Source: a virus. From it: a DNA stretch of 64,000 nt. Positions 13,308 through 64,000 of this stretch are shown piece by piece. Position 1 is the first letter of the stretch, and every line of letters begins with the position of its first letter. Under the pieces are notes generated by a model, which was not told the origin of the DNA, did not search any database, and saw only the letters and a program-made list of their open reading frames with translations. The DNA is taken from IMG/VR virus record IMGVR_UViG_3300045988_176682. One strand, given 5' to 3'. The position numbers were made by a program, and so were the translations under genes.

Positions 13308-13754
13308 TTAATTGCCGGCTGGCTGATTTGATTTCCCAGCTTCCTCGTCACCAGAGGCATTACCGGCAGTGTTACCAGCAGGTTTAGCAGATTTCCCAGC
13401 TTCCTCGTCACCAGAGGCATTACCGGCAGTGTTACCAGCAGGTTTAGCAGATTTTTCATCTTCCTGATTTTCCAGCAGCAGCTTAGAATTGAGGCTCTTC
13501 TCTTTCAAGAATTTAGCAACTGCCTTATTTTTATCTTTTTCAGAACTGTAGTATTTAACGAAAACTTCATCAGTACAGTTATCTTTCAAAGTTCCAAGAA
13601 TGTTCAGACGTTTAGCTGAAACTGCGATATTCAAACTAACAGACTCTTCCAGTACATAAGGTCTGTCTGGCATAGCCATTTGGCCTTTATGATTCAAATC
13701 AAAGAAACAACCGCCGTCTTTTACCTCGACAAGAAATTTTGCTCTTTTTTCCAT
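13308..13754 (-). CDS. hypothetical virion protein with C-terminal tandem repeat
   Basis: 148 aa. The C-terminus carries 2.5 copies of SAKPAGNTAGNASGDEEAGK, encoded by a perfect 60-bp duplication. Confidence 0.5.
   Translation of the reverse strand: MEKRAKFLVEVKDGGCFFDLNHKGQMAMPDRPYVLEESVSLNIAVSAKRLNILGTLKDNCTDEVFVKYYSSEKDKNKAVAKFLKEKSLNSKLLLENQEDEKSAKPAGNTAGNASGDEEAGKSAKPAGNTAGNASGDEEAGKSNQPAGN
13322..13441. repeat. perfect 60-bp tandem duplication (2 copies)
   Basis: 13322..13381 and 13382..13441 are identical as read (gatttcccagcttcctcgtcaccagaggcattaccggcagtgttaccagcaggtttagca). Confidence 0.9.
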
Positions 13755-18294: not shown

Positions 18295-20064
18295 TTAAAA
18301 TAAACGATTTTCTCTTGAACTACTATATCCAATTAAATTTATATTGTCTATAACATTTTTAGATTTATCTTTCAAGGAGTTAGTAGGAACCGCAGTAATC
18401 AGACACTCTCTCGTTTCTCCTTTAGCTTCGCCTAAACCTTCAACATAATAGATTTTTTCAGCTACCATAGCGTAAGCAGAAGCATGAAAAAAGTGGTCGG
18501 TACCGTTTATTTTTCTCCACTCCGGAGCTTTTCCGGCCTCATCATCTCTAATCATATCGCGGAAATGGAGGATAAGGGTGTCCAAAAGGTCTCCATAACC
18601 ATAAAGAGACAATTTTTCTTGTGATATACCATCCATCACGCGGTCGAGAGCAGCTGTGCGGCTTATGGTATAATAAATTACCTTCCCATCAATATCTTTC
18701 TTAGGCTCGGCATCTCGGAACCCGGCATAAATTACAGGCATAATTTTACCATTGGACTCCTCAAAAATTTCGTCGGAAAGAGATGTATAAGGGTATCGGT
18801 CGATTGCTCCGGCAATAATTCGATACTTATCTTGGAAATATTTTATTCTTTCTTTTAACTTTTTATAATGTACCTGCTCGAATTTAACAAGAGCCCCTTC
18901 AACATATAAAGCAATATGGCAGACTAATCCCACGTCAATACCAATAAACATAGGCTTGTCTTTGGAAATGTCCGGAGTATTAGGAGATTGTGCCGCCTTA
19001 CGGATTTTGAACTCTTCCATTCTAGAATTTCCACTCTCATAATCTTCTCCCAATACAGTATTAAATCCTCGACGGACTTTTCCCTTTTTAATATAATCAG
19101 CCATAGTCATAACAAGGTATTTAATGCTGAGAAGGGGGGAAGAGAAAGGACGAACCTGATAACCTCGGGAATGAAGACGACTTGGATACTTAGGAACCCA
19201 TTCTCTTCGACTGTCATCATTCAAATCCAAAGGCTTGCCACACTTGGTACATCTTACATAAGCGGAATCAAGGTCGAGACCAACCGCTATTTTGGCATCA
19301 ATATCGGTTATAACATTAATTTCTTTAGGCAAATCAGGAATACAAACACTGTTTAAGTCATATAGCGGAACCTGCTGATGATTACAATGAGGGCATTTAT
19401 AGAAATACTCATGCTGGTCAGACCCCTCATACTCCAAGGACACCCCATAACCGGTAAAGGTTGGGGTACTGAACATTTGCTTTATCTTAAAATCAGAGTG
19501 TTGGTAGCGGGAATTAAACAGAGCAATGATTTCCATATCTGACAAATCAAGCTCATCGTTAATAATCATATCGACCGGGGTGGACGTAGCGTCAGCTTCA
19601 CTGTTACCGGCAATATAAAGAAAGGAATCTCCCAGCTGCATAATGGAATTATTACGGACTTCCTTTCCCTCTTTTCCGCCAAACTTAGGAAAATCTCTAT
19701 CGAGGATGGGTCTGATACGAGTCTTACTGTTTCGGTCTCTCATCTCGGTAGTTGGGAAAGAATACAAGGCATTAGTTCCCGGGTTTTGTATCAAGAAGCC
19801 AAGGGTTTTTCGAATTTGTCCCTCGGTAAGACCAACTTGGGATAGCTTTTTACAGCAAAGATTGGGGTGCATGTCGTCCAATATCTGTCTCTGGAACTCG
19901 TGTCTCTTAAAAGAAAAAGGCTGTCCTTTTAATGTGGTATTATTACAAATCCATTCGGCCATGGATGTATCTTTATTAATGGACTCGATTTTTTCAACAA
20001 TGCTTTTTATGTAGGGGTTAGTATTCCAATCCATATCGGTCTCCTTGCTTAAGAGATAAATCAA
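18295..20064 (-). CDS. terminase large subunit, GpA family
   Basis: 589 aa, first gene of the operon. CCKKLSQVGLTEG matches the lambda gpA Walker-A-like KSARVGYSK. Also carries the CxxC...CxxC pair (KCPHCNH...RCTKCGK) seen in gpA-type terminases. Confidence 0.8.
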   Translation of the reverse strand: MIYLLSKETDMDWNTNPYIKSIVEKIESINKDTSMAEWICNNTTLKGQPFSFKRHEFQRQILDDMHPNLCCKKLSQVGLTEGQIRKTLGFLIQNPGTNALYSFPTTEMRDRNSKTRIRPILDRDFPKFGGKEGKEVRNNSIMQLGDSFLYIAGNSEADATSTPVDMIINDELDLSDMEIIALFNSRYQHSDFKIKQMFSTPTFTGYGVSLEYEGSDQHEYFYKCPHCNHQQVPLYDLNSVCIPDLPKEINVITDIDAKIAVGLDLDSAYVRCTKCGKPLDLNDDSRREWVPKYPSRLHSRGYQVRPFSSPLLSIKYLVMTMADYIKKGKVRRGFNTVLGEDYESGNSRMEEFKIRKAAQSPNTPDISKDKPMFIGIDVGLVCHIALYVEGALVKFEQVHYKKLKERIKYFQDKYRIIAGAIDRYPYTSLSDEIFEESNGKIMPVIYAGFRDAEPKKDIDGKVIYYTISRTAALDRVMDGISQEKLSLYGYGDLLDTLILHFRDMIRDDEAGKAPEWRKINGTDHFFHASAYAMVAEKIYYVEGLGEAKGETRECLITAVPTNSLKDKSKNVIDNINLIGYSSSRENRLF

Positions 20065-20088
20065 AAAAAATATTTTTACAAGAAAAAC

Positions 20089-20117
20089 TTGACATAATAA
20101 GACAAATGTGATTATAT
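20089..20117 (+). promoter_or_regulatory. promoter-like TTGACA-17-TTATAT
   Basis: TTGACA at 20089..20094 and TTATAT at 20112..20117. Confidence 0.35.
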
Positions 20118-20181
20118 GAGACTGTTCTTAAGTTAAAGCATTATAAAAATGTGAACACTCTATTTGTTCCTGCCGATTGAA

Positions 20182-20209
20182 AATCCTCTCTTTTTAGGGA
20201 GGATTTTTT
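20182..20209 (+). terminator. intrinsic terminator-like hairpin with T-run
   Basis: AATCCTCTC / GGGAGGATT stem with one G-U pair, loop TTTTTA, then TTTTTT. Confidence 0.5.
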
Positions 20210-20214
20210 ATGTA

Positions 20215-20243
20215 TTGACAAATAGAGAAAAATGACATAAACT
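20215..20243 (+). promoter_or_regulatory. promoter-like TTGACA-17-TAAACT
   Basis: TTGACA at 20215..20220 and TAAACT at 20238..20243. First of two tATTGACAA copies. Confidence 0.35.
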
Positions 20244-20245
20244 AA

Positions 20246-20278
20246 ACCTGTGATTTGTAAAGCTCCGCACAGGTTTTT
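20246..20278 (+). terminator. hairpin plus T5, a weaker terminator-like element
   Basis: ACCTGTG ... CACAGGT stem with a 15-nt loop, followed by TTTTT. Confidence 0.35.
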
Positions 20279-20342
20279 ACAAAGGTCCTAAAAGTCCTTA
20301 TTTAGTTCCTAAACTACATTGATGATTCTTTCGTGATTGAAG

Positions 20343-20370
20343 CCTCCGTCCCCTAAACGGAGGTTTTTTT
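20343..20370 (+). terminator. strong intrinsic terminator
   Basis: CCTCCGT cccctaa ACGGAGG followed by TTTTTTT. Confidence 0.6.
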
Positions 20371-20388
20371 ATTGACAAGGAAAAACGA

Positions 20389-20670
20389 ATGGAATATAAA
20401 GACAAAGTAGGACATAATATGACAGAGGAAAATATGAAGAATAAATTAACCCTAAAACAATTCTCTGCCGAAGTTGGCTATTCTACACGCCAATTAAGCA
20501 GGTATATTAAGTCTGGTAAGCTATTCCCTCGCCGATGGTTGAACGGAAGATGTTATTTTTTGGAAGAAGATATTGAAAAATTTAACAATTTCTTTCAAAA
20601 TGTTACAAATCCCGCCGTTTTAGACCTTACATTGTCGGAGAATCCAGATGGAGAAGACGAATTATCCTGA
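20389..20670 (+). CDS. MerR/excisionase-type winged-HTH DNA-binding protein
   Basis: 93 aa. LTLKQFSAEVGYSTRQLSRYIKSGKLFPRRWLNGRCYFLEEDIEKF fits the HTH_17/MerR-like wHTH. First gene of the plus-strand block. Confidence 0.55.
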   Translation: MEYKDKVGHNMTEENMKNKLTLKQFSAEVGYSTRQLSRYIKSGKLFPRRWLNGRCYFLEEDIEKFNNFFQNVTNPAVLDLTLSENPDGEDELS

Positions 20671-21091
20671 TATTACCTACCCCCAGGTATTTAATATTCA
20701 AACTATTTTTATGAATTTTAAAAAAGACCCTGACTATATAAAAAATTCTCCCTACTCAGAGGCGGTAAAGACTGGGTTGGAGAGCATATTCAGGAGAGCC
20801 AACGAGCACGAGAACCGTATCCAACGGGTAGATTTAGTCGATTTGAACCTTGAAGAAGAAGCCAATCTGGTTTATAGTCGAACGAAACAGCTCATGGATA
20901 AACCTCTCGAGCCGAATGAGGAACTTTCTATCCTCAAAAATGCCGCAGTTATGTTGGAAAAATTATTAGACTTGGCTGAAAGAGCTAAAAATCAGCGCTA
21001 TATTAGGGATTTAGAGCAGAAAATATTGAAAATAGCTCAAAAGATGCCGGAAGAATCGAGAAATGAATTATTAAATATGTTGAAGGAATAA
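20648..21091 (+). CDS. hypothetical protein
   Basis: 147 aa, helical. Overlaps the previous gene by 23 nt. Confidence 0.45.
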   Translation: MEKTNYPDITYPQVFNIQTIFMNFKKDPDYIKNSPYSEAVKTGLESIFRRANEHENRIQRVDLVDLNLEEEANLVYSRTKQLMDKPLEPNEELSILKNAAVMLEKLLDLAERAKNQRYIRDLEQKILKIAQKMPEESRNELLNMLKE

Positions 21092-21093
21092 AA

Positions 21094-23559
21094 ATGGGAA
21101 TTTTTAGCGAAAACGCCCCTAAATTATGGGCTTTAGGGCTACCGGTTATGCCTCTCTACCCCAAAGAGAAGAATCCTATCGTTCCGTCTTGGCAGCAGTT
21201 CGCAGAACGGATGCCAACTCCGGACGAACAGGCTTTCTGGCTTAAAAACTATGCCAACGGTAACATTGGCCTCCCTCTCGGTCCGCAGTCAGGCTGTGTA
21301 GCTCTTGATATTGATACCGAGAATGACGAACTCTTCAAATTAGTTTGCGGCCTTGTTCCGCAATCCCCGTGGAATCGTATCGGTTCTCACGGAAAGGTGA
21401 TGCTTTTCAAGTACACCGGCCAAAAAACTTTCCGTATCAAAGATATTGACGGCGTAACTATTTGCGAGCTGCTTTCAGCCCGTACACAGGTTGTTATTCC
21501 TCCGTCAATCCACCCCAAAACTCAGAAACCTTACTATTCGGATACTAATCTGGAAGATGTAATAAAAAATCTGCCGGTACTTGACCAGAACATTGAGAAC
21601 ATTCTTCGTCAATCTCTCGAAGATTTTGGCGTAACCCTGTCTCACTCAGGCTGGACAAGAACCACGGATTACATTTCCAGAGGAAGCCGTGACGTAAAAA
21701 TGACTTCTATGGCCGGTTTCTTTGCCAACGGGATTACCAGAGGAGAGCTCTCGGTTAAGGAAGCCATTGCAAGAATGTACGCTTGGTATTCTTCCTGCGT
21801 GGAACAGATTGCCGGAGATGATGTCGACATTGATAAAGGCATCAGAAACATGATTTCTTTCCTCGTGCAAGACGTTATCGGGCCAAAGAAGAAGGTTCTG
21901 CCGCGAGGGTGGGACGAGGGCCTCTCCGAGGAAGAAAAAACCCAAATGGGGCTCAATTTTAATACCGAGCTCGAGGAGTGGGACTATAATCGCTTAAAAG
22001 AATATCTTTACGAGCAATTCAACCTTCATGCAGAGGATTCTGTCCAGCGCTCGGAAGCAATCGAATATATCTTATGCCGAATCGCCCGGTCTCCGAGCCT
22101 GACATCGCTTGACGAGGACCGAATCCTGAAATATATCAGCCAAACTTGCAAAAACATCCAGCTTTCTGCCCTCCGGAAGCGCTTAAACGAGTTAAAAACA
22201 GGCGATTTAAGAGGAACCAACCACACAGAAATCGCCCGTGCCGTTATCGAGGAAGTCCGCCGGTCAACGGATATGCACTTCTTCCAAGACAAATTGTGGC
22301 GGTGGAACGGCTCGAACTGGGAATCGCAGCCGGAACAAGAGCTGCTTGAAATGATAGCCAACAACTTCGGTCATCTGCCGGCCGCAACTCGAGCCACAGA
22401 CCATGCAGGTATCATCAGAATCTTAAAAAATATCGTACCGCAGGGGTTAACCGTTAACGGAGTTCCTCAGGCAAACGGCATTAACTTCGCCAACGGGTTC
22501 GTCGATATGGAAGGAATCCTCCATCCACACAATCCGGCCTATGGTATGACCTACACTCTTCCTTTCCGGTATATGCCGGAACTGGGAACATTAGACCATT
22601 GTCCTCGTTTTAAGCAGTTCCTTACCGATGTTTGGGGAGAAGAAAAAGACTTCACCCAACGGGTTCGGGCTCTTCAAGAGGTAATGGCCTCCACTTTCTT
22701 CGGTATCGGCACCTCTTTCTCACGAGCCGTCCTTCTTTATGGTATTGCCGGTTCGGGCAAATCCCAGTTGTTGGAAATCGTGAAAAACCTGCTGCCGCAG
22801 AAAGTGGTATCTTATATCCCGCCCTATGACTTTGACGACAGATTTAAGGTGACGGAACTTTCCCGTTCCATCATGAACATCTGCGGAGAGTTACACCGGG
22901 ATAAAAAGATACCGTCCGCCGCTTTCAAGCAAATCATTGACAGCTCCGAACTGTCTGGCCAATATAAAAGCCGCCCCTTGTTTGATTTCCGCCCGAAAGC
23001 GACGCATTGGTTTGCCAGCAACCACCTTCCGAAGTCGGATGACGATACCGAAGGCTTTAACCGTCGGTGGTTAATCCTGTCGTTTAACCATCCGGTTTCT
23101 TCGGATAAAAAAGTCCGTAATATTGGCGATATAATCGTCGCTGAGGAGAGAGAAGCCATTGCGGCCTGGGTAGTATCGGTGATAAACGAGCTGCGTAAGC
23201 AGAGCGAATATTCGATACCCGACAGCCACTATAGCTTTGTCTCGGAGATGGCTTCTGAAAACGATACACTTTTTTTCTTTCTCATCTCGGACAAGGGGCC
23301 GAGAAAGGTATTGAACGACGACGGGAGCTTATCAGAAAGTACGAAAATACACGCCGACAAACTCTACGAAGAATACACCGCCTTTTGCTACTCTACGGCT
23401 CATGCCCGGCCTGTGGGGTTGAAAAGATACTCTCAGAGGCTGAGGGAATTGTCGATTTTTATGGGATTCAAAGTGGACAGTTTGACGGTGTATGGACTCA
23501 CAATGGACAAGGGCCAGGCTACAATGGCGAAGAGTGTACCATTGATAAGAAACTTTTAG
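21094..23559 (+). CDS. DNA primase-helicase (prim-pol N-terminal domain + D5_N + P4-type SF3 helicase)
   Basis: 821 aa. VALDIDTEN is a prim-pol DxD motif. Walker A LLYGIAGSGKSQLLEI. C-terminus resembles P4-alpha/D5-like helicases. Confidence 0.8.
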   Translation: MGIFSENAPKLWALGLPVMPLYPKEKNPIVPSWQQFAERMPTPDEQAFWLKNYANGNIGLPLGPQSGCVALDIDTENDELFKLVCGLVPQSPWNRIGSHGKVMLFKYTGQKTFRIKDIDGVTICELLSARTQVVIPPSIHPKTQKPYYSDTNLEDVIKNLPVLDQNIENILRQSLEDFGVTLSHSGWTRTTDYISRGSRDVKMTSMAGFFANGITRGELSVKEAIARMYAWYSSCVEQIAGDDVDIDKGIRNMISFLVQDVIGPKKKVLPRGWDEGLSEEEKTQMGLNFNTELEEWDYNRLKEYLYEQFNLHAEDSVQRSEAIEYILCRIARSPSLTSLDEDRILKYISQTCKNIQLSALRKRLNELKTGDLRGTNHTEIARAVIEEVRRSTDMHFFQDKLWRWNGSNWESQPEQELLEMIANNFGHLPAATRATDHAGIIRILKNIVPQGLTVNGVPQANGINFANGFVDMEGILHPHNPAYGMTYTLPFRYMPELGTLDHCPRFKQFLTDVWGEEKDFTQRVRALQEVMASTFFGIGTSFSRAVLLYGIAGSGKSQLLEIVKNLLPQKVVSYIPPYDFDDRFKVTELSRSIMNICGELHRDKKIPSAAFKQIIDSSELSGQYKSRPLFDFRPKATHWFASNHLPKSDDDTEGFNRRWLILSFNHPVSSDKKVRNIGDIIVAEEREAIAAWVVSVINELRKQSEYSIPDSHYSFVSEMASENDTLFFFLISDKGPRKVLNDDGSLSESTKIHADKLYEEYTAFCYSTAHARPVGLKRYSQRLRELSIFMGFKVDSLTVYGLTMDKGQATMAKSVPLIRNF

Positions 23560-24831: not shown

Positions 24832-24892
24832 TCCTTCTAACCCTCCTAATCCCGGAGTTACCCGGAGAGAGCCCAGAAATCGGATTTGGAAA

Positions 24893-24919
24893 GACCCTTC
24901 CTTTTGGAAGGGTTTTTTA
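24893..24919 (+). terminator. intrinsic terminator
   Basis: GACCCTTCC tttt GGAAGGGTT followed by TTTTT. Confidence 0.55.
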
Positions 24920-24927
24920 TTGGGTAC

Positions 24928-25194
24928 GGGAAAGGGAAAAGATAAAAGGGTCACAGTTAGGTTACTGGAAGGTGTCCTAATATGTCCTATCCCGAAAAAT
25001 TTCGGAATCGGATTCGGGAAAGGGAAAAGATAAAAGGGTCACAGTTAGGTTACTGGAAGGTGTCCTAATATGTCCTATCCCGAAAAATTTCGGAATCGGA
25101 TTCGGGAAAGGGAAAAGATAAAAGGGTCACAGTTAGGTTACTGGAAGGTGTCCTAATATGTCCTATCCCGAAAAATTTCGGAATCGGATTCGGG
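24928..25194. repeat. three perfect 88-bp direct repeats (iteron-like), each with internal inverted repeats
   Basis: Period 88, measured from the recurrence of AAAGGGAAAA at 24931, 25019 and 25107. Each unit contains CCGAAA-aa-TTTCGG and GAATC-g-GATTC inverted repeats. Followed by an AT-rich tract at 25200..25395. Confidence 0.9.
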
Positions 25195-25395
25195 AGGGCC
25201 CTGTCCCCGGTTCCCTTGCCGATTCTCTCTCAAAAAAAACATACTACCCTTGCACTAAGTCTTTGATTTTACTTATTTACACCCTCTTTGTTCAATTTTT
25301 TATATTTATATGTTGTCAAGCTTTTTTATTAATGTTACCTTACCACTATAAACAGCGTTTTTAACATTCATATTTTACACACAGAGGATAATACC

Positions 25396-26418: not shown

Positions 26419-27048
26419 CCATATATATTTTTGAGCGGGATGAGGTTATGAACAGATTATAATCCGGATTCAGAATTATTTAGGGATACTTTACCACGGG
26501 TATGGGAGGTTTTAGGTTCGGAGTGTCTCCGAACGGGGAGAAAGGAGAAAAATTTTAAATCGGGATATGAATCGATTCATAAAAAAGTTAATTTTAGACT
26601 AATTTGACGGAAGGAGATTTCAACTACAGGTAGGGAGATAGGTGAAAAAGCACGCAAAATTTTAACTCAAATGATATTCCTCTCTTGAATATATTTATAT
26701 TGACATTTGACAAATTTTGAATAAAATATTTCCAGAATCACCGGATTATAAACAAAACGTCGAATTACGTCAAAATTTCTCTATTTGTCTTTTTTGTCAA
26801 TCATTCATATTTTAATAAATTATTGATTCTATTATATATTTCTTCTTCTCTATTATTTCTCACTTCGTTTAGAATCTGAGTTTTATTTTTAGACAAAATA
26901 ATTTTGTATAAAAAAAATAACATAATAGGGTAAAAATAAAAACGATGTTTGACTCTTGTAAGGAAAGATTTTATTTTGTAAAAACAAAGACATCTCGTTA
27001 GATGATTATCTGGACAAAATTTTAGTCTACATAAAAAGGAAAAAAATA

Positions 27049-30026: not shown

Positions 30027-30114
30027 AAAAGATATATACATCTATAGAACAAATTAATTGATTCTTAAACTTTTTCGTGATAGGACATAATAAGACATAT
30101 AAAGGAGATTTCTT

Positions 30115-33439: not shown

Positions 33440-33617
33440 TTTTTATAAGTCTCTTGACATTATCAAAAATAAATGTAAAATGAGGACAATATCGGACATT
33501 ATAAGACAAAAAGAAATTTCTGTTGAAGCTGAAAACAAATTAAAAAACCAGTTAGTGTCTGATGCCAATAAATTTTGTTTGATGCTAGGGATATGTAATG
33601 GAAAAAATACCAATTAG
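33423..33617 (+). CDS. hypothetical protein
   Basis: 64 aa ORF. Confidence 0.3.
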   Translation: MGEVIDFYKSLDIIKNKCKMRTISDIIRQKEISVEAENKLKNQLVSDANKFCLMLGICNGKNTN

Positions 33618-42039: not shown

Positions 42040-42101
42040 TTGACAATAATCAAGATGAGATATAATGTCTTCTTATGACAATAAGAGTCTTATATTGTCA
42101 T
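42040..42101 (+). promoter_or_regulatory. promoter (TTGACA ... TATAAT) followed by an operator-like imperfect inverted repeat
   Basis: TTGACA at 42040..42045, TATAAT at 42061..42066 (15-nt spacer). ATGACAATAAGA-g-TCTTATATTGTCAT at 42075..42101. Confidence 0.4.
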
Positions 42102-59705: not shown

Positions 59706-60114
59706 ACAAGAATGGGAAATAGCCCAAGACGAGTTTGAAGCCGCTTTCAATAAGGGTAAATTTTCTTATTGTCATCGGTTTCCAGACAGTCTGGATGCCA
59801 CCAGAGGTAATTATAATAATCCTCGGTCTCGATTTGTAAAACTTCCTCCTCAACCGTCAGACTTTATTGTTGTCTGGAACGGCATAACATTTTTTGCAGA
59901 GGTTAAGTCAACTAAATCCACAACCGGAATTTCTTCCTCATTATTTAAGAATCAAGCAGCCCAGAAACTGAAAATCCTTAATGCCGGAGGGATATATTAT
60001 TTCTTTGTAAAAAGAATATCCACCGGGCAATGGTACCGGTTGCCAGGCAATTATCCCAACCTAAATGCAAAATGGTCAGAATTAGATAAATTTCTGTTTG
60101 ACATTCAAAAATAA
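59689..60114 (+). CDS. putative PD-(D/E)xK nuclease (resolvase-like)
   Basis: SDFIVVWNGITFFAEVKSTKS gives a D...E-V-K arrangement. Adjacent to the SbcCD-like genes. Confidence 0.35.
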   Translation: MSLMAKQEWEIAQDEFEAAFNKGKFSYCHRFPDSLDATRGNYNNPRSRFVKLPPQPSDFIVVWNGITFFAEVKSTKSTTGISSSLFKNQAAQKLKILNAGGIYYFFVKRISTGQWYRLPGNYPNLNAKWSELDKFLFDIQK

Positions 60115-60351
60115 ATCATTAATATGTCCTTGTATGTCGCATTGAGTCTTATAAGAATCCTTTAGCGGATTCTTATAAATTAACTCAGAAAGGAGACCAA
60201 TAAATGTTAGTGTTACAGATTGTTATTGCTCTAATAATAGCTCGAGTAATTGATACTCGTATAGTCCGTCCACTTTTAGCTAATGACCCTATTTTTTATT
60301 TGGTCGTTTAATTTTAAATAGACGTAAACATAAAAACCATAAGGATTAAAT

Positions 60352-63510: not shown

Positions 63511-64000
63511 ATGTCCAACGAACAAAAAATTGATTTAACCAAATTGTCGATTGAAGAACTCGAAAAAATTAAGTTCTTATTCCCGGAAGCTGTAGAGAAT
63601 GAACTTAAATCAAGACAGGCTTATGAGACCGACAGCGATTTATTCTTTGATGCTTATGGTGTTAAATTGGTCCTGGACCCGTTAATTAACGGTATGAAGT
63701 CTTGCCCGACCAAAAAAGGTCTATTGGAATCCGGTGTCCTTGGTCTTCTCGAAAAGATTTTGAATACCGGCGATAAAAGAGGTAACAATTACAAAGAAAG
63801 ATATGAGTGCTATAGCCATAATATGCAAAAAGAAATCCCGACTCCGGAAACGGTACAGACAGCTTATGCCGAAGAAACAGCTCCGGTAGAAACTGTATTA
63901 AATGCACCCGTAGAAACAGCTCCGGTAGAAACTGCACCTGTCGAAGCTCCGGCTGCTCCGGCTGCTCCGGCTGCTCCGGCTGCTCCGGCTGCTCCGGCTG
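63511..64000 (+). CDS. hypothetical protein with TAPVE and (Ala-Pro-Ala)n C-terminal repeats (3' end beyond window)
   Basis: ATG at 63511 after TAGGAGAA. Open to the window edge. Confidence 0.5.
   Translation, partial: MSNEQKIDLTKLSIEELEKIKFLFPEAVENELKSRQAYETDSDLFFDAYGVKLVLDPLINGMKSCPTKKGLLESGVLGLLEKILNTGDKRGNNYKERYECYSHNMQKEIPTPETVQTAYAEETAPVETVLNAPVETAPVETAPVEAPAAPAAPAAPAAPAAPA
63946..64000. repeat. GCTCCGGCT 9-bp tandem repeat (at least 6 copies, truncated by window end)
   Basis: Read directly; encodes PAAPAAPAAPAAPA. Confidence 0.9.

Follow-up and report, generated by a model that had tools for sequence, protein, structure and literature searches.

Tandem promoter-terminator units and a putative direct-repeat operator at the early/late junction of an uncultivated human-gut siphophage

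This study deals with positions 20065-20388 of the virus record IMGVR_UViG_3300045988_176682, which was analysed over a stretch of 64,000 nucleotides (nt), hereafter the window. Leftward from approximately 20 kb the window encodes structural genes (a gpA-type large terminase, a portal, and a 1,551-amino acid tail protein), and rightward it encodes replication and other early genes, with an early operon in the order helix-turn-helix (HTH) regulator, 147-amino acid protein, and Prim-Pol/D5 helicase. The stretch between them is a divergent early/late control region, of a conserved yet fairly ordinary phage kind. The explanation that best accounts for its content, which we consider probable, is that it holds immediate-early non-coding RNA mini-genes together with an autoregulated early promoter. 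The sequence elements, the conservation of their architecture, the lack of coding potential, and the operator statistics on which this explanation relies were computed directly.

Tandem promoter-terminator units

The plus strand of the region can be read as two short transcription units placed one after the other, plus a third promoter, with the following elements:

20089-20117, plus strand: P1, the first early promoter (TTGACA 20089-20094, 17 nt, TTATAT 20112-20117), with a start predicted at ~20124
20124-20209, plus strand: predicted non-coding RNA 1 (RNA1), ~86 nt, an A/U-rich unstructured body plus T1, delimited by the promoter and terminator positions
20179-20209, plus strand: T1, an intrinsic terminator of 13 pairs followed by T6, core stem 20184-20191/20196-20203, from the fold
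20215-20243, plus strand: P2 (TTGACA 20215-20220, 17 nt, TAAACT 20238-20243; 10/12), with a start predicted at ~20250
20244-20278, plus strand: inverted repeat AAACCTGTG-N15-CACAGGTTT followed by T5 (fold z = -3.4)
20250-20370, plus strand: predicted non-coding RNA 2 (RNA2), ~121 nt, three UCCU-containing repeats (20285, 20294, 20306) plus T2, delimited by the promoter and terminator positions
20339-20370, plus strand: T2, a unidirectional intrinsic terminator of 11 pairs with loop UCCCCUA, followed by T7, from the fold
20372-20400, plus strand: P3 (TTGACA 20372-20377, 17 nt, TATAAA 20395-20400; 11/12), with a start predicted at ~20407

The three promoters have the form recognized by sigma-70/sigma-A (TTGACA, a TATAAT-like hexamer, and a spacer of 17 ± 1 nt), with 9-10 matches out of 12 in P1, which also holds a TGn, 10/12 in P2, and 11/12 in P3. 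The -10 of P1 (TTATAT) matches TATAAT at 3/6 positions, with the TGn located upstream (20109-20110), and it reaches 4/6 (TATATG) when read with an 18-nt spacer. P1 and P2 had already been recognized in a previous sequence-only reading of this DNA, which also described three identical TTGACA boxes; this holds for those at 20214 and 20371 (ATTGACAA), but the first one is cTTGACAt. Three plus-strand TTGACA hexamers are found inside 290 nt, where 0.1 are expected from the 22 present in 64 kb (post-hoc Poisson 1.5e-4). A general scan for promoters and terminators with looser criteria, covering 19000-21500, revealed no enrichment over shuffled sequences (8 promoter-like elements versus 6.6 expected, and 3 terminator-like elements versus 2.4), and passed over P3 because it demanded a T at position 6 of the -10.

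T1 folds with -15.9 kcal/mol (z = -3.3) and T2 with -14.8 kcal/mol (z = -4.5), and in neither case were any of 200 shuffles as good. Both consist of a G+C-rich stem-loop followed by at least 5-6 U, both appear in the minimum free energy (MFE) and centroid structures alike, and both are among the cleanest plus-strand terminators of the whole window, at positions that agree with those initially proposed to within 4 nt. Two single-nucleotide polymorphisms (SNPs) among strains fall in their stems: A20200G in T1 keeps its pair as U-G, and G20342A in T2 turns a G-U pair into A-U. On the reverse strand, the stem of T1 is followed by TTTTC, and this terminator may be weakly bidirectional. The next promoter follows at once, as the -35 of P2 begins 5 nt past the T-run of T1, and that of P3 begins 1 nt past the T-run of T2. 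The internal hairpin with T5 that had also been described is present at 20244-20278; it can fold only in RNA that reads through from P1, because the start predicted for P2 (~20250) comes after its 5' arm, and it can be regarded as a back-up terminator for such read-through or as a DNA site. Strain SNPs at 20252 disrupt the innermost pair of this hairpin.

Neither unit of the window contains an open reading frame (ORF) preceded by a ribosome-binding site (RBS), and the earlier statement that no protein genes lie between the promoters and the terminators is borne out, with zero ORFs preceded by a Shine-Dalgarno (SD) sequence. When the units of the window and its relatives are taken together, no SD-preceded ORF of at least 8 codons was found except a weak TTG ORF in L006_u3. 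Small-peptide coding was considered for lineage L006 and rejected, as its two candidate ORFs (one of them an 89-amino acid call) are frameshifted in L008.

The junction was compared in 17 distinct lineages, with terminase (TerL) identities of 45-82%, and its synteny is constant in all of them, with the terminase gene opposite those of a small HTH protein, a ~150-amino acid protein, and the Prim-Pol/D5 helicase. At least one promoter-terminator-promoter unit is present in all 11 lineages in which the HTH gene is the first of the early genes (TerL identity 51-82%), with four units in L006, two in the window, L011, and L018, and one each in L009, L014, L015, L016, L024, L027, and L053. These units follow the same plan, which consists of a near-consensus promoter, 57-130 nt free of ORFs (~470 nt in one unit), an intrinsic terminator, and a new -35 located 0-9 nt past the T-run. 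The equivalent promoters of the relatives match the consensus at 11-12 of 12 positions, and the equivalent of the first promoter is a perfect 12/12 in L009, L014, and L015. In contrast, the transcribed bodies are unrelated between lineages and between units of one genome: an all-against-all comparison of 12 units and a search for k-mers shared by 16 units (L018_u2 left out) found only terminator T-runs in common. For the next lineage (82% TerL), the alignment with the window is limited to the segment formed by T2, P3, and the operator described below, which is the sole one that can be aligned with L006-L008 (nhmmer E = 2e-7) and in which L006 keeps P3 as TTGACA-17-TATAAC. According to these comparisons, the architecture of the predicted units is conserved, and their content is replaced wholesale. 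The recurrence of this architecture in 11 lineages, the absence of ORFs, and the presence of the terminators in both MFE and centroid structures support the initial proposal of two short non-coding transcription units.

Some features of the relatives deserve a separate description. The second unit of L018 (TerL 51%) extends for ~470 nt (2360-2830 in locus coordinates, minus strand), with no convincing ORF and no Rfam match, and could be a larger non-coding RNA. The lineages without units are L017, L019, L020, L028, L030, and L031; in these, the HTH gene is separated from the promoter that bears the operator by one or two additional genes, one of which encodes a Cys-rich protein of ~150 amino acids. 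L031 also has an extra gene of ~200 codons, on the terminase strand, inserted between the terminase gene and the early promoter.

Regarding the RNA bodies, that of RNA1 (20122-20178) is no more structured than shuffled sequences (z = +0.34), and that of RNA2 (20250-20338) gives z = -0.63; neither compensatory changes nor energies below those of shuffles, which would denote a structured conserved RNA, were found in them. The Rfam and covariance check suggested together with the sequence-only reading brought no family at gathering score when Rfam 15 was applied to the window and 10 related loci, and the permissive hits were sub-threshold and driven only by terminators. The best of the sub-threshold hits, GcvB (32.1 bits versus 42), was discarded: it rests on the two terminators, with 43 central positions left out of the alignment, and extends over two predicted transcripts. 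Searches of 75 loci by nhmmer with RNA1, RNA2, and the whole spacer found RNA homologues only in strains at least 99% identical, and exact 26-mers of each RNA gave no match in IMG/VR. Complementarity to the rest of the window is at chance level, with a best match of 12 nt (E = 0.24) and none of at least 13 nt. The bodies of all units are A/U-rich and G-poor (169 C versus 128 G overall). A GATTGAA motif resembling a clustered regularly interspaced short palindromic repeat (CRISPR), which precedes both terminators, was dropped because it is missing in the relatives.

What these RNAs would do can only be suggested tentatively. They may be fast-evolving, trans-acting, immediate-early RNAs directed against the host or its defences, a possible function that we put forward with some reserve. 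It is preferred because each RNA would consist of an unstructured body plus a terminator, with a content that is lineage-specific and a copy number that varies, and because in several relatives a first promoter of 12/12 drives just a short RNA. A more specific version, which we find doubtful, is that the units form a hypervariable cassette array, in which the slot separating the late promoter from the regulated early one is kept across the gut-phage family while the RNA content is swapped, with 1-4 units per genome; if true, it would fit host- or defence-specific countermeasures such as RNA decoys, anti-defence RNAs, or small RNAs (sRNAs) acting against the host.

The same succession of promoter and terminator could also be explained if the terminators were conditional attenuators, with an antiterminator or a sensing leader permitting later read-through, as in the lambda PR'-tR' system with Q. 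A strong promoter, a leader of 60-130 nt, and a terminator are indeed the layout of lambda PR'/6S RNA, and conditional premature termination in phage 5' untranslated regions (5'UTRs) has been discussed (PMC10914365). However, no antiterminator pairing was seen by eye, and the terminators appear in both MFE and centroid structures; there was no Rfam match to a riboswitch, leader, or T-box, and no conserved nut-, put-, or qut-like sequence was found between promoter and terminator across lineages. In addition, the fresh promoter directly after each terminator makes read-through redundant, and a protein bound at the operator of P3 would block it. Conditional attenuation is, according to these data, quite improbable.

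The putative direct-repeat operator and the HTH regulator

The third promoter differs from the other two in what it is predicted to transcribe and in the repeats that follow it. The features involved are the following:

20401-20424, plus strand: O3, three GACA direct repeats with 10-nt spacing, GACAAAGTAGGACATAATATGACA, at about -6 to +18 of P3, from the pattern count
20091-20104, plus strand: O1, a phased GACA pair, GACATAATAAGACA, over the -35 and spacer of P1, from the pattern count
20425-20670, plus strand: RBS GAGGA (20425-20429) and the gene of a 78-amino acid HTH_17/excisionase-like regulator, from ATG 20434 to the stop at 20670, from Pfam, PHROG, and the relatives

In the sequence-only reading, the third TTGACA could not be the -35 of the gene taken to start at ATG 20389, as it lay only 11 nt from it. 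This did not stand, since TATAAA follows the hexamer after 17 nt and the gene starts at 20434. The ATG at 20389 is missing in L006 (82% TerL), which has ATCATATATAAC there, and in all lineages the HTH gene starts 4-8 nt after a GGAG-type RBS adjoining the last operator repeat. Gene callers place the start at 20419. The position of the RBS and the start in the relatives indicates that the ATG of the HTH gene is 20434, so the third TTGACA can serve as part of a promoter, and P3 is identified on these grounds as the predicted promoter of the operon for the HTH protein, the 147-amino acid protein, and the primase-helicase.

Phased pairs of GACA (GACA-N6-7-GACA) occur 10 times in the window versus 1.8 expected, a number that 0/100 shuffles reach, and phased triples occur twice versus 0.00 expected. 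Helical phasing, enrichment over chance, and association with promoters, the features of a phased direct-repeat operator, are thus seen, with sites at or directly behind P1, P3, and two distant promoters, 33454 and 60098. The 14-mer of O1, GACATAATAAGACA, is also present in identical form at 30084-30097, just before the RBS of ORF 30115, and each copy of the 88-bp (base pair) tandem repeat at 24927-25195 carries one phased pair, TAGGACATATTAGGACA, on the minus strand. In the relatives, 2-7 direct repeats with 10-11-bp phasing are found at the equivalent (last early) promoter in 17/17 lineages, with a motif that varies by lineage: GACA, TAACAT, GTAAC, ATGTAAA, GTGTAAAG, or GTGTGC(C/A)A. At the first promoter, no operator was found in L014, L015, L016, L024, and L027.

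The three distant early sites have their own particularities, two of them lying directly behind near-consensus promoters. At 33454-33510, TTGACA-16-TAAAAT precedes three GACA repeats (33485-33508), while at 60098-60138, TTGACA-16-TAATAT precedes a GACA pair in inverted orientation (60125-60138). The product of ORF 30115, whose operator region is 30060-30100, gives an RNase E-like hit in PHROG.

The 78-amino acid protein matches Pfam HTH_17 and MerR_1 and is assigned by PHROG to excisionases or transcriptional regulators. Proteins of the Xis/Cox/Apl kind bind direct repeats, and the 78-amino acid HTH protein is likely to be the one that binds the GACA repeats. The third residue of its recognition helix is Arg in 8/8 GACA lineages and Gln in 3/3 TAACAT lineages; L015 and L016 (SYR[ST]IYRY, with TGACA) and L024, L027, and L053 (SYQTIYRY, with TAACA) are essentially one residue and one base apart. 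This tracking of residue and motif fits a direct read-out of the repeats by the HTH protein. As an Xis/Cox/Apl-like regulator, it would negatively autoregulate P3 and control a small early regulon.

From these data, a model can be proposed in which the host sigma-A/70 polymerase would fire the three tandem rightward promoters upon phage entry. P1 and P2 would constitute self-contained mini-genes, giving G-poor transcripts of 86 or 121 nt that would end at unconditional terminators, whose U/T tract would also provide the A/T-rich sequence ahead of the next -35. Transcription into the early operon would come from P3 alone, and the 78-amino acid Xis/AlpA-like protein would most likely bind the GACA repeats head-to-tail and switch early transcription off. 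We infer in this model both that the RNAs accumulate and that their role is directed at the host or its defences, and likewise that the repeats are bound by the HTH protein.

Several observations weigh against this model. In the source phage the -10 of P1 is poor (3-4/6), and six related lineages lack any unit and have a single promoter. The RNA bodies have no conservation, structure, covariation, or complementarity of at least 13 nt, and hence offer nothing positive for a role in trans, and their anti-SD-like motifs are only marginally enriched (47/1000 shuffles reach the observed value). The covariation between helix residue and motif follows the phylogeny and involves few lineages. Finally, the intergenic divergence between close strains is not clearly below that of the neighbouring genes (1.3-2.2% versus 1.8-2.1% in TerL, where all the changes are synonymous), and the HTH and 147-amino acid genes lie in a block of low divergence. 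In two independent strain pairs, L006/L008 and L011/L012, the HTH gene shows 0 differences and the next gene (147/151 amino acids) ~0.7%, while terminase, portal, and primase differ by 1.4-3.0%, again with all the terminase changes synonymous. The two genes form either a local low-divergence block or a case of unusual constraint on synonymous sites.

The candidate leftward promoter, genome ends, and replication

On the leftward side, two features are relevant:

20053-20081, minus strand: candidate weak terminase promoter (-35 TTGTAA 20081-20076, 17 nt, -10 TATCTC 20058-20053), 7/12, at the homologous position in relatives
20034-20046, minus strand: actual start of the gene for the large terminase (ATG 20036-20034, RBS AAGGAGA 20046-20040), from the sequence and the gene caller

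The start obtained mechanically for the terminase ORF (TTG 20064) makes it overlong, while the gene caller gives a product of 579 amino acids (on identical contigs) with the Pfam domain GpA_ATPase. No minus-strand promoter of at least 9/12 was found in the window, and to that extent the earlier remark that the region lacks one is correct; however, the weak 7/12 candidate occupies the position where the relatives have leftward promoter-like elements. The homologous elements are TTGACA-17-TTTAAT in L016, TTGACT-16-TAATTT in L015, and TTGCAA-17-TAATTT in L006. In the relatives, the leftward -35 is placed back-to-back with the first early -35 at 7-8 bp, has a weak -10, and lies about 45-49 nt before the terminase ATG; in the window, the candidate -35 is back-to-back with that of P1, with 7 nt between the hexamers. 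Transcripts from the candidate promoter would start just upstream of the terminase RBS. Given its weakness, a phage factor is probably needed, and O1 would lie at about -45 to -55 of this promoter; shut-off by the HTH protein may also free or assist it. Antisense control of a long terminase leader was considered and ruled out, as the bidirectional terminators of some relatives (L006 T4 and L015 T1) would halt the leftward transcript.

This geometry also allows P1 and P2 to be viewed as DNA or transcription elements, with the RNAs as by-products and the terminators as insulators of the regulated P3. Polymerase-recruiting or polymerase-occluding sites could drive the early/late switch by promoter competition or supercoiling, which would agree with an architecture that is conserved when the sequence is not, and with T-tracts fused to the next -35. 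The back-to-back -35 hexamers 7-8 bp apart, found in most lineages, point in the same direction, since the footprint of RNA polymerase should leave no room for two polymerases at such spacing; so do the overlap of O1 with P1 in the window and the bidirectional terminators of several relatives. Against this, the operator at the first promoter is not general (it is absent in the five lineages named above), occlusion does not account for the additional units (up to 4), which are distant from the late promoter, and the lineages devoid of units show the same back-to-back geometry. We therefore regard it as rather unlikely that the RNAs are mere by-products, and mini-genes for immediate-early RNAs continue to be the preferred explanation.

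The region was also expected to contain a cos or pac site at which the terminase starts packaging. It adjoins the gene of a large terminase of the gpA type and is non-coding with repeats, as such a site might be, but no small terminase gene is adjacent, and each fetched contig that reaches the junction runs across it (at least 13 near-identical or related assemblies). Moreover, the syntenic Caulobacter phage Seuss is annotated with direct terminal repeats of 1,748 bp, and its TerL gene starts 5.5 kb from the end, with the primase between; JWF has a similar TerL offset. Among near-identical phages, the 88-bp array and its immediate surroundings, at 24.9-25.2 kb, contain at least six contig ends, and one contig of 73,420 bp has both its ends there. 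Several metagenome contigs from relatives start 4.5-6.2 kb ahead of their terminase gene. The clustering at 24.9-25.2 kb may reflect either a real end or assemblies broken at the only repeat, and neither points to 20.1-20.4 kb. A packaging start inside the region is hardly credible in the light of these contig ends, of the synteny with Seuss, and of the offset in JWF, indirect evidence on which the verdict rests, and 20065-20388 is very probably not the packaging site.

The array is a perfect 88-bp tandem repeat at 24927-25195, inside a gap between genes (24832-25395), with 3.1 copies and a TRF score of 538. The primase-helicase gene lies 1.4 kb upstream of the array, which is preceded by a strong terminator and gives way to AT-rich sequence; other assemblies have 1, 2, or 3 copies. 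It is a candidate for a replication origin or iteron array, a sink for the regulator, or a genome end.

Replication has to be considered for the control region too, as it could be a transcription-activated origin like that of Lactococcus phage c2 (Ceduovirus), opened or primed by the transcripts of P1 and P2. The placement matches: a non-coding stretch without ORF or RBS, between the first early promoters and between divergent early and late clusters, which exists as lineage-specific sequence types without mutual similarity and directly precedes the primase-helicase operon. Near 20 kb the cumulative GC skew also reaches its lowest value, although this says little because the turn coincides with the switch of gene strand. 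On the other hand, the phage has its own Prim-Pol/D5 helicase, and 24927-25395 is a better candidate for the origin, with an 88-bp repeat that bears paired GACA sites and an AT-rich stretch. The RNAs are G-poor, which is unfavourable for stable R-loops, and are 5-10 times shorter than the c2 transcript; furthermore, six related lineages have no unit, and there is no DNA similarity to GenBank phages. An origin of the c2 type is consequently unlikely in this region.

The phage and its comparison with known systems

The source phage is an uncultivated siphophage of the lytic type, with a genome of ~73.4 kb and ~38% G+C that has turned up repeatedly in human-gut metagenomes; the style of its promoters and RBS suggests a Firmicutes host. 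GenBank phages gave zero DNA matches in near and distant search modes, and the best GenBank match of the terminase has 38% identity, in the group of Achromobacter JWF and Caulobacter Seuss. The terminase has 946 homologues in the protein database at E <= 1e-30; among those listed, the ones down to ~47% identity belong to contigs of up to ~76 kb. The phage is part of a large human-gut family of roughly 65-76 kb that has been neither cultivated nor described. A scan for tRNA and tmRNA genes found none.

Four other sites of the window are worth recording. The 630-nt gap at 26419-27048, without called genes, contains tandem TTGACA hexamers on the plus strand (26700 and 26707), with TTGACG-17-TATAAT on the minus strand (26773) directed towards them; it could represent a further RNA locus or a further small region of divergent control. 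At 42040-42100, TTGACA is followed by TATAAT at a short spacing of 15 nt, and ORF 42075 has its start overlapped by an inverted repeat, TGACAATA-N-TATTGTCA, which resembles an operator of palindromic type, distinct from the direct repeats. A 60-bp repeat (2.3 copies) is located at 13330-13465 within a structural gene, and a 9-bp repeat, GCTCCGGCT, with 6 copies, runs from 63946 into the window end at 64000.

The outcome is a working map of transcription at the junction, which places three early promoters together with two terminators and an operator, adds a candidate promoter for the late genes, and corrects one gene start. A probable regulon of a small Xis-like regulator emerges as well, with a simple correspondence between residue and base (Arg-G and Gln-A), and the tandem mini-genes are candidates for phage early sRNAs, few of which have been described from phages of Firmicutes. 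If the RNA content is host-specific, the slot would be worth searching for RNA-based functions in host takeover or anti-defence; if it is not, the region would still provide strong and insulated promoter-terminator parts in compact, natural form.

Short phage RNAs have classic examples in the oop RNA and the PR'-tR' 6S RNA of lambda. Short RNAs produced by a promoter and an early terminator are common in virulent phages, such as phiKZ, PAK_P3, YuA, and LUZ19 (Putzeys et al. 2024, PMC10914365). They resemble the predicted units in being made from a host-type or phage promoter, in having less than 250 nt and no SD-ORF, and in ending at an intrinsic terminator, and one PAK_P3 example is likewise located upstream of a primase/helicase gene (PMC10914365). 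However, in those phages the terminator is in the 5'UTR, some transcripts continue past it into the gene, and members of a genus share conserved sequences, whereas in the window phage a new promoter lies at each terminator, the units are in tandem (1-4), and their sequences are unrelated despite terminases that are 72-82% identical. The novelty is thus the tandem, tightly abutted cassettes with wholesale turnover, in an undescribed phage family, and not the kind of short RNA, which is already familiar.

In c2, the promoters PE1 and PE2 enclose a non-coding origin, located where the early and late clusters diverge, and the non-coding transcript from PE1 has been implicated in initiation (PMC7150918). 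Both regions have the first two early promoters as flanks, no ORF or RBS, and sequence types that are dissimilar between groups (PMC7150918). In contrast, the c2 origin supports plasmid replication with host proteins only, while the window phage encodes a primase-helicase of its own and has an iteron-like array elsewhere, and no sequence similarity exists between them.

A further likeness is found in the switch of Bacillus phage phi29, in which the early promoters A2c and A2b diverge from the late A3 and are controlled by the small protein p4. It is also a lytic phage of Firmicutes in which sigma-A promoters serve both gene classes; its late promoter is weak, without a good -35 or -10, and adjoins tandem early promoters in back-to-back arrangement, with a small phage DNA-binding protein acting on the latter. 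Nevertheless, phi29 has no terminators between its early promoters, and p4 is unrelated to HTH_17 and binds inverted repeats. In addition, activation of the late promoter in the window phage is inferred.

Finally, direct-repeat operators of small excisionase-type regulators are known from P2 Cox, 186 Apl, and lambda Xis, and AlpA/HTH_17 proteins are encoded upstream of primase genes in P4-like elements and phage-inducible chromosomal islands. Unlike these systems, the window has no integrase or att context, and the motifs (GACA, TAACAT, GTAAC, GTGTGCCA, and others) are specific to the gut-phage family. The common features are a protein of ~80 amino acids of the HTH_17/Xis-like kind, 2-7 direct repeats with ~10.5-bp phasing that overlap promoters, and the gene order HTH protein, small protein, and primase-helicase.

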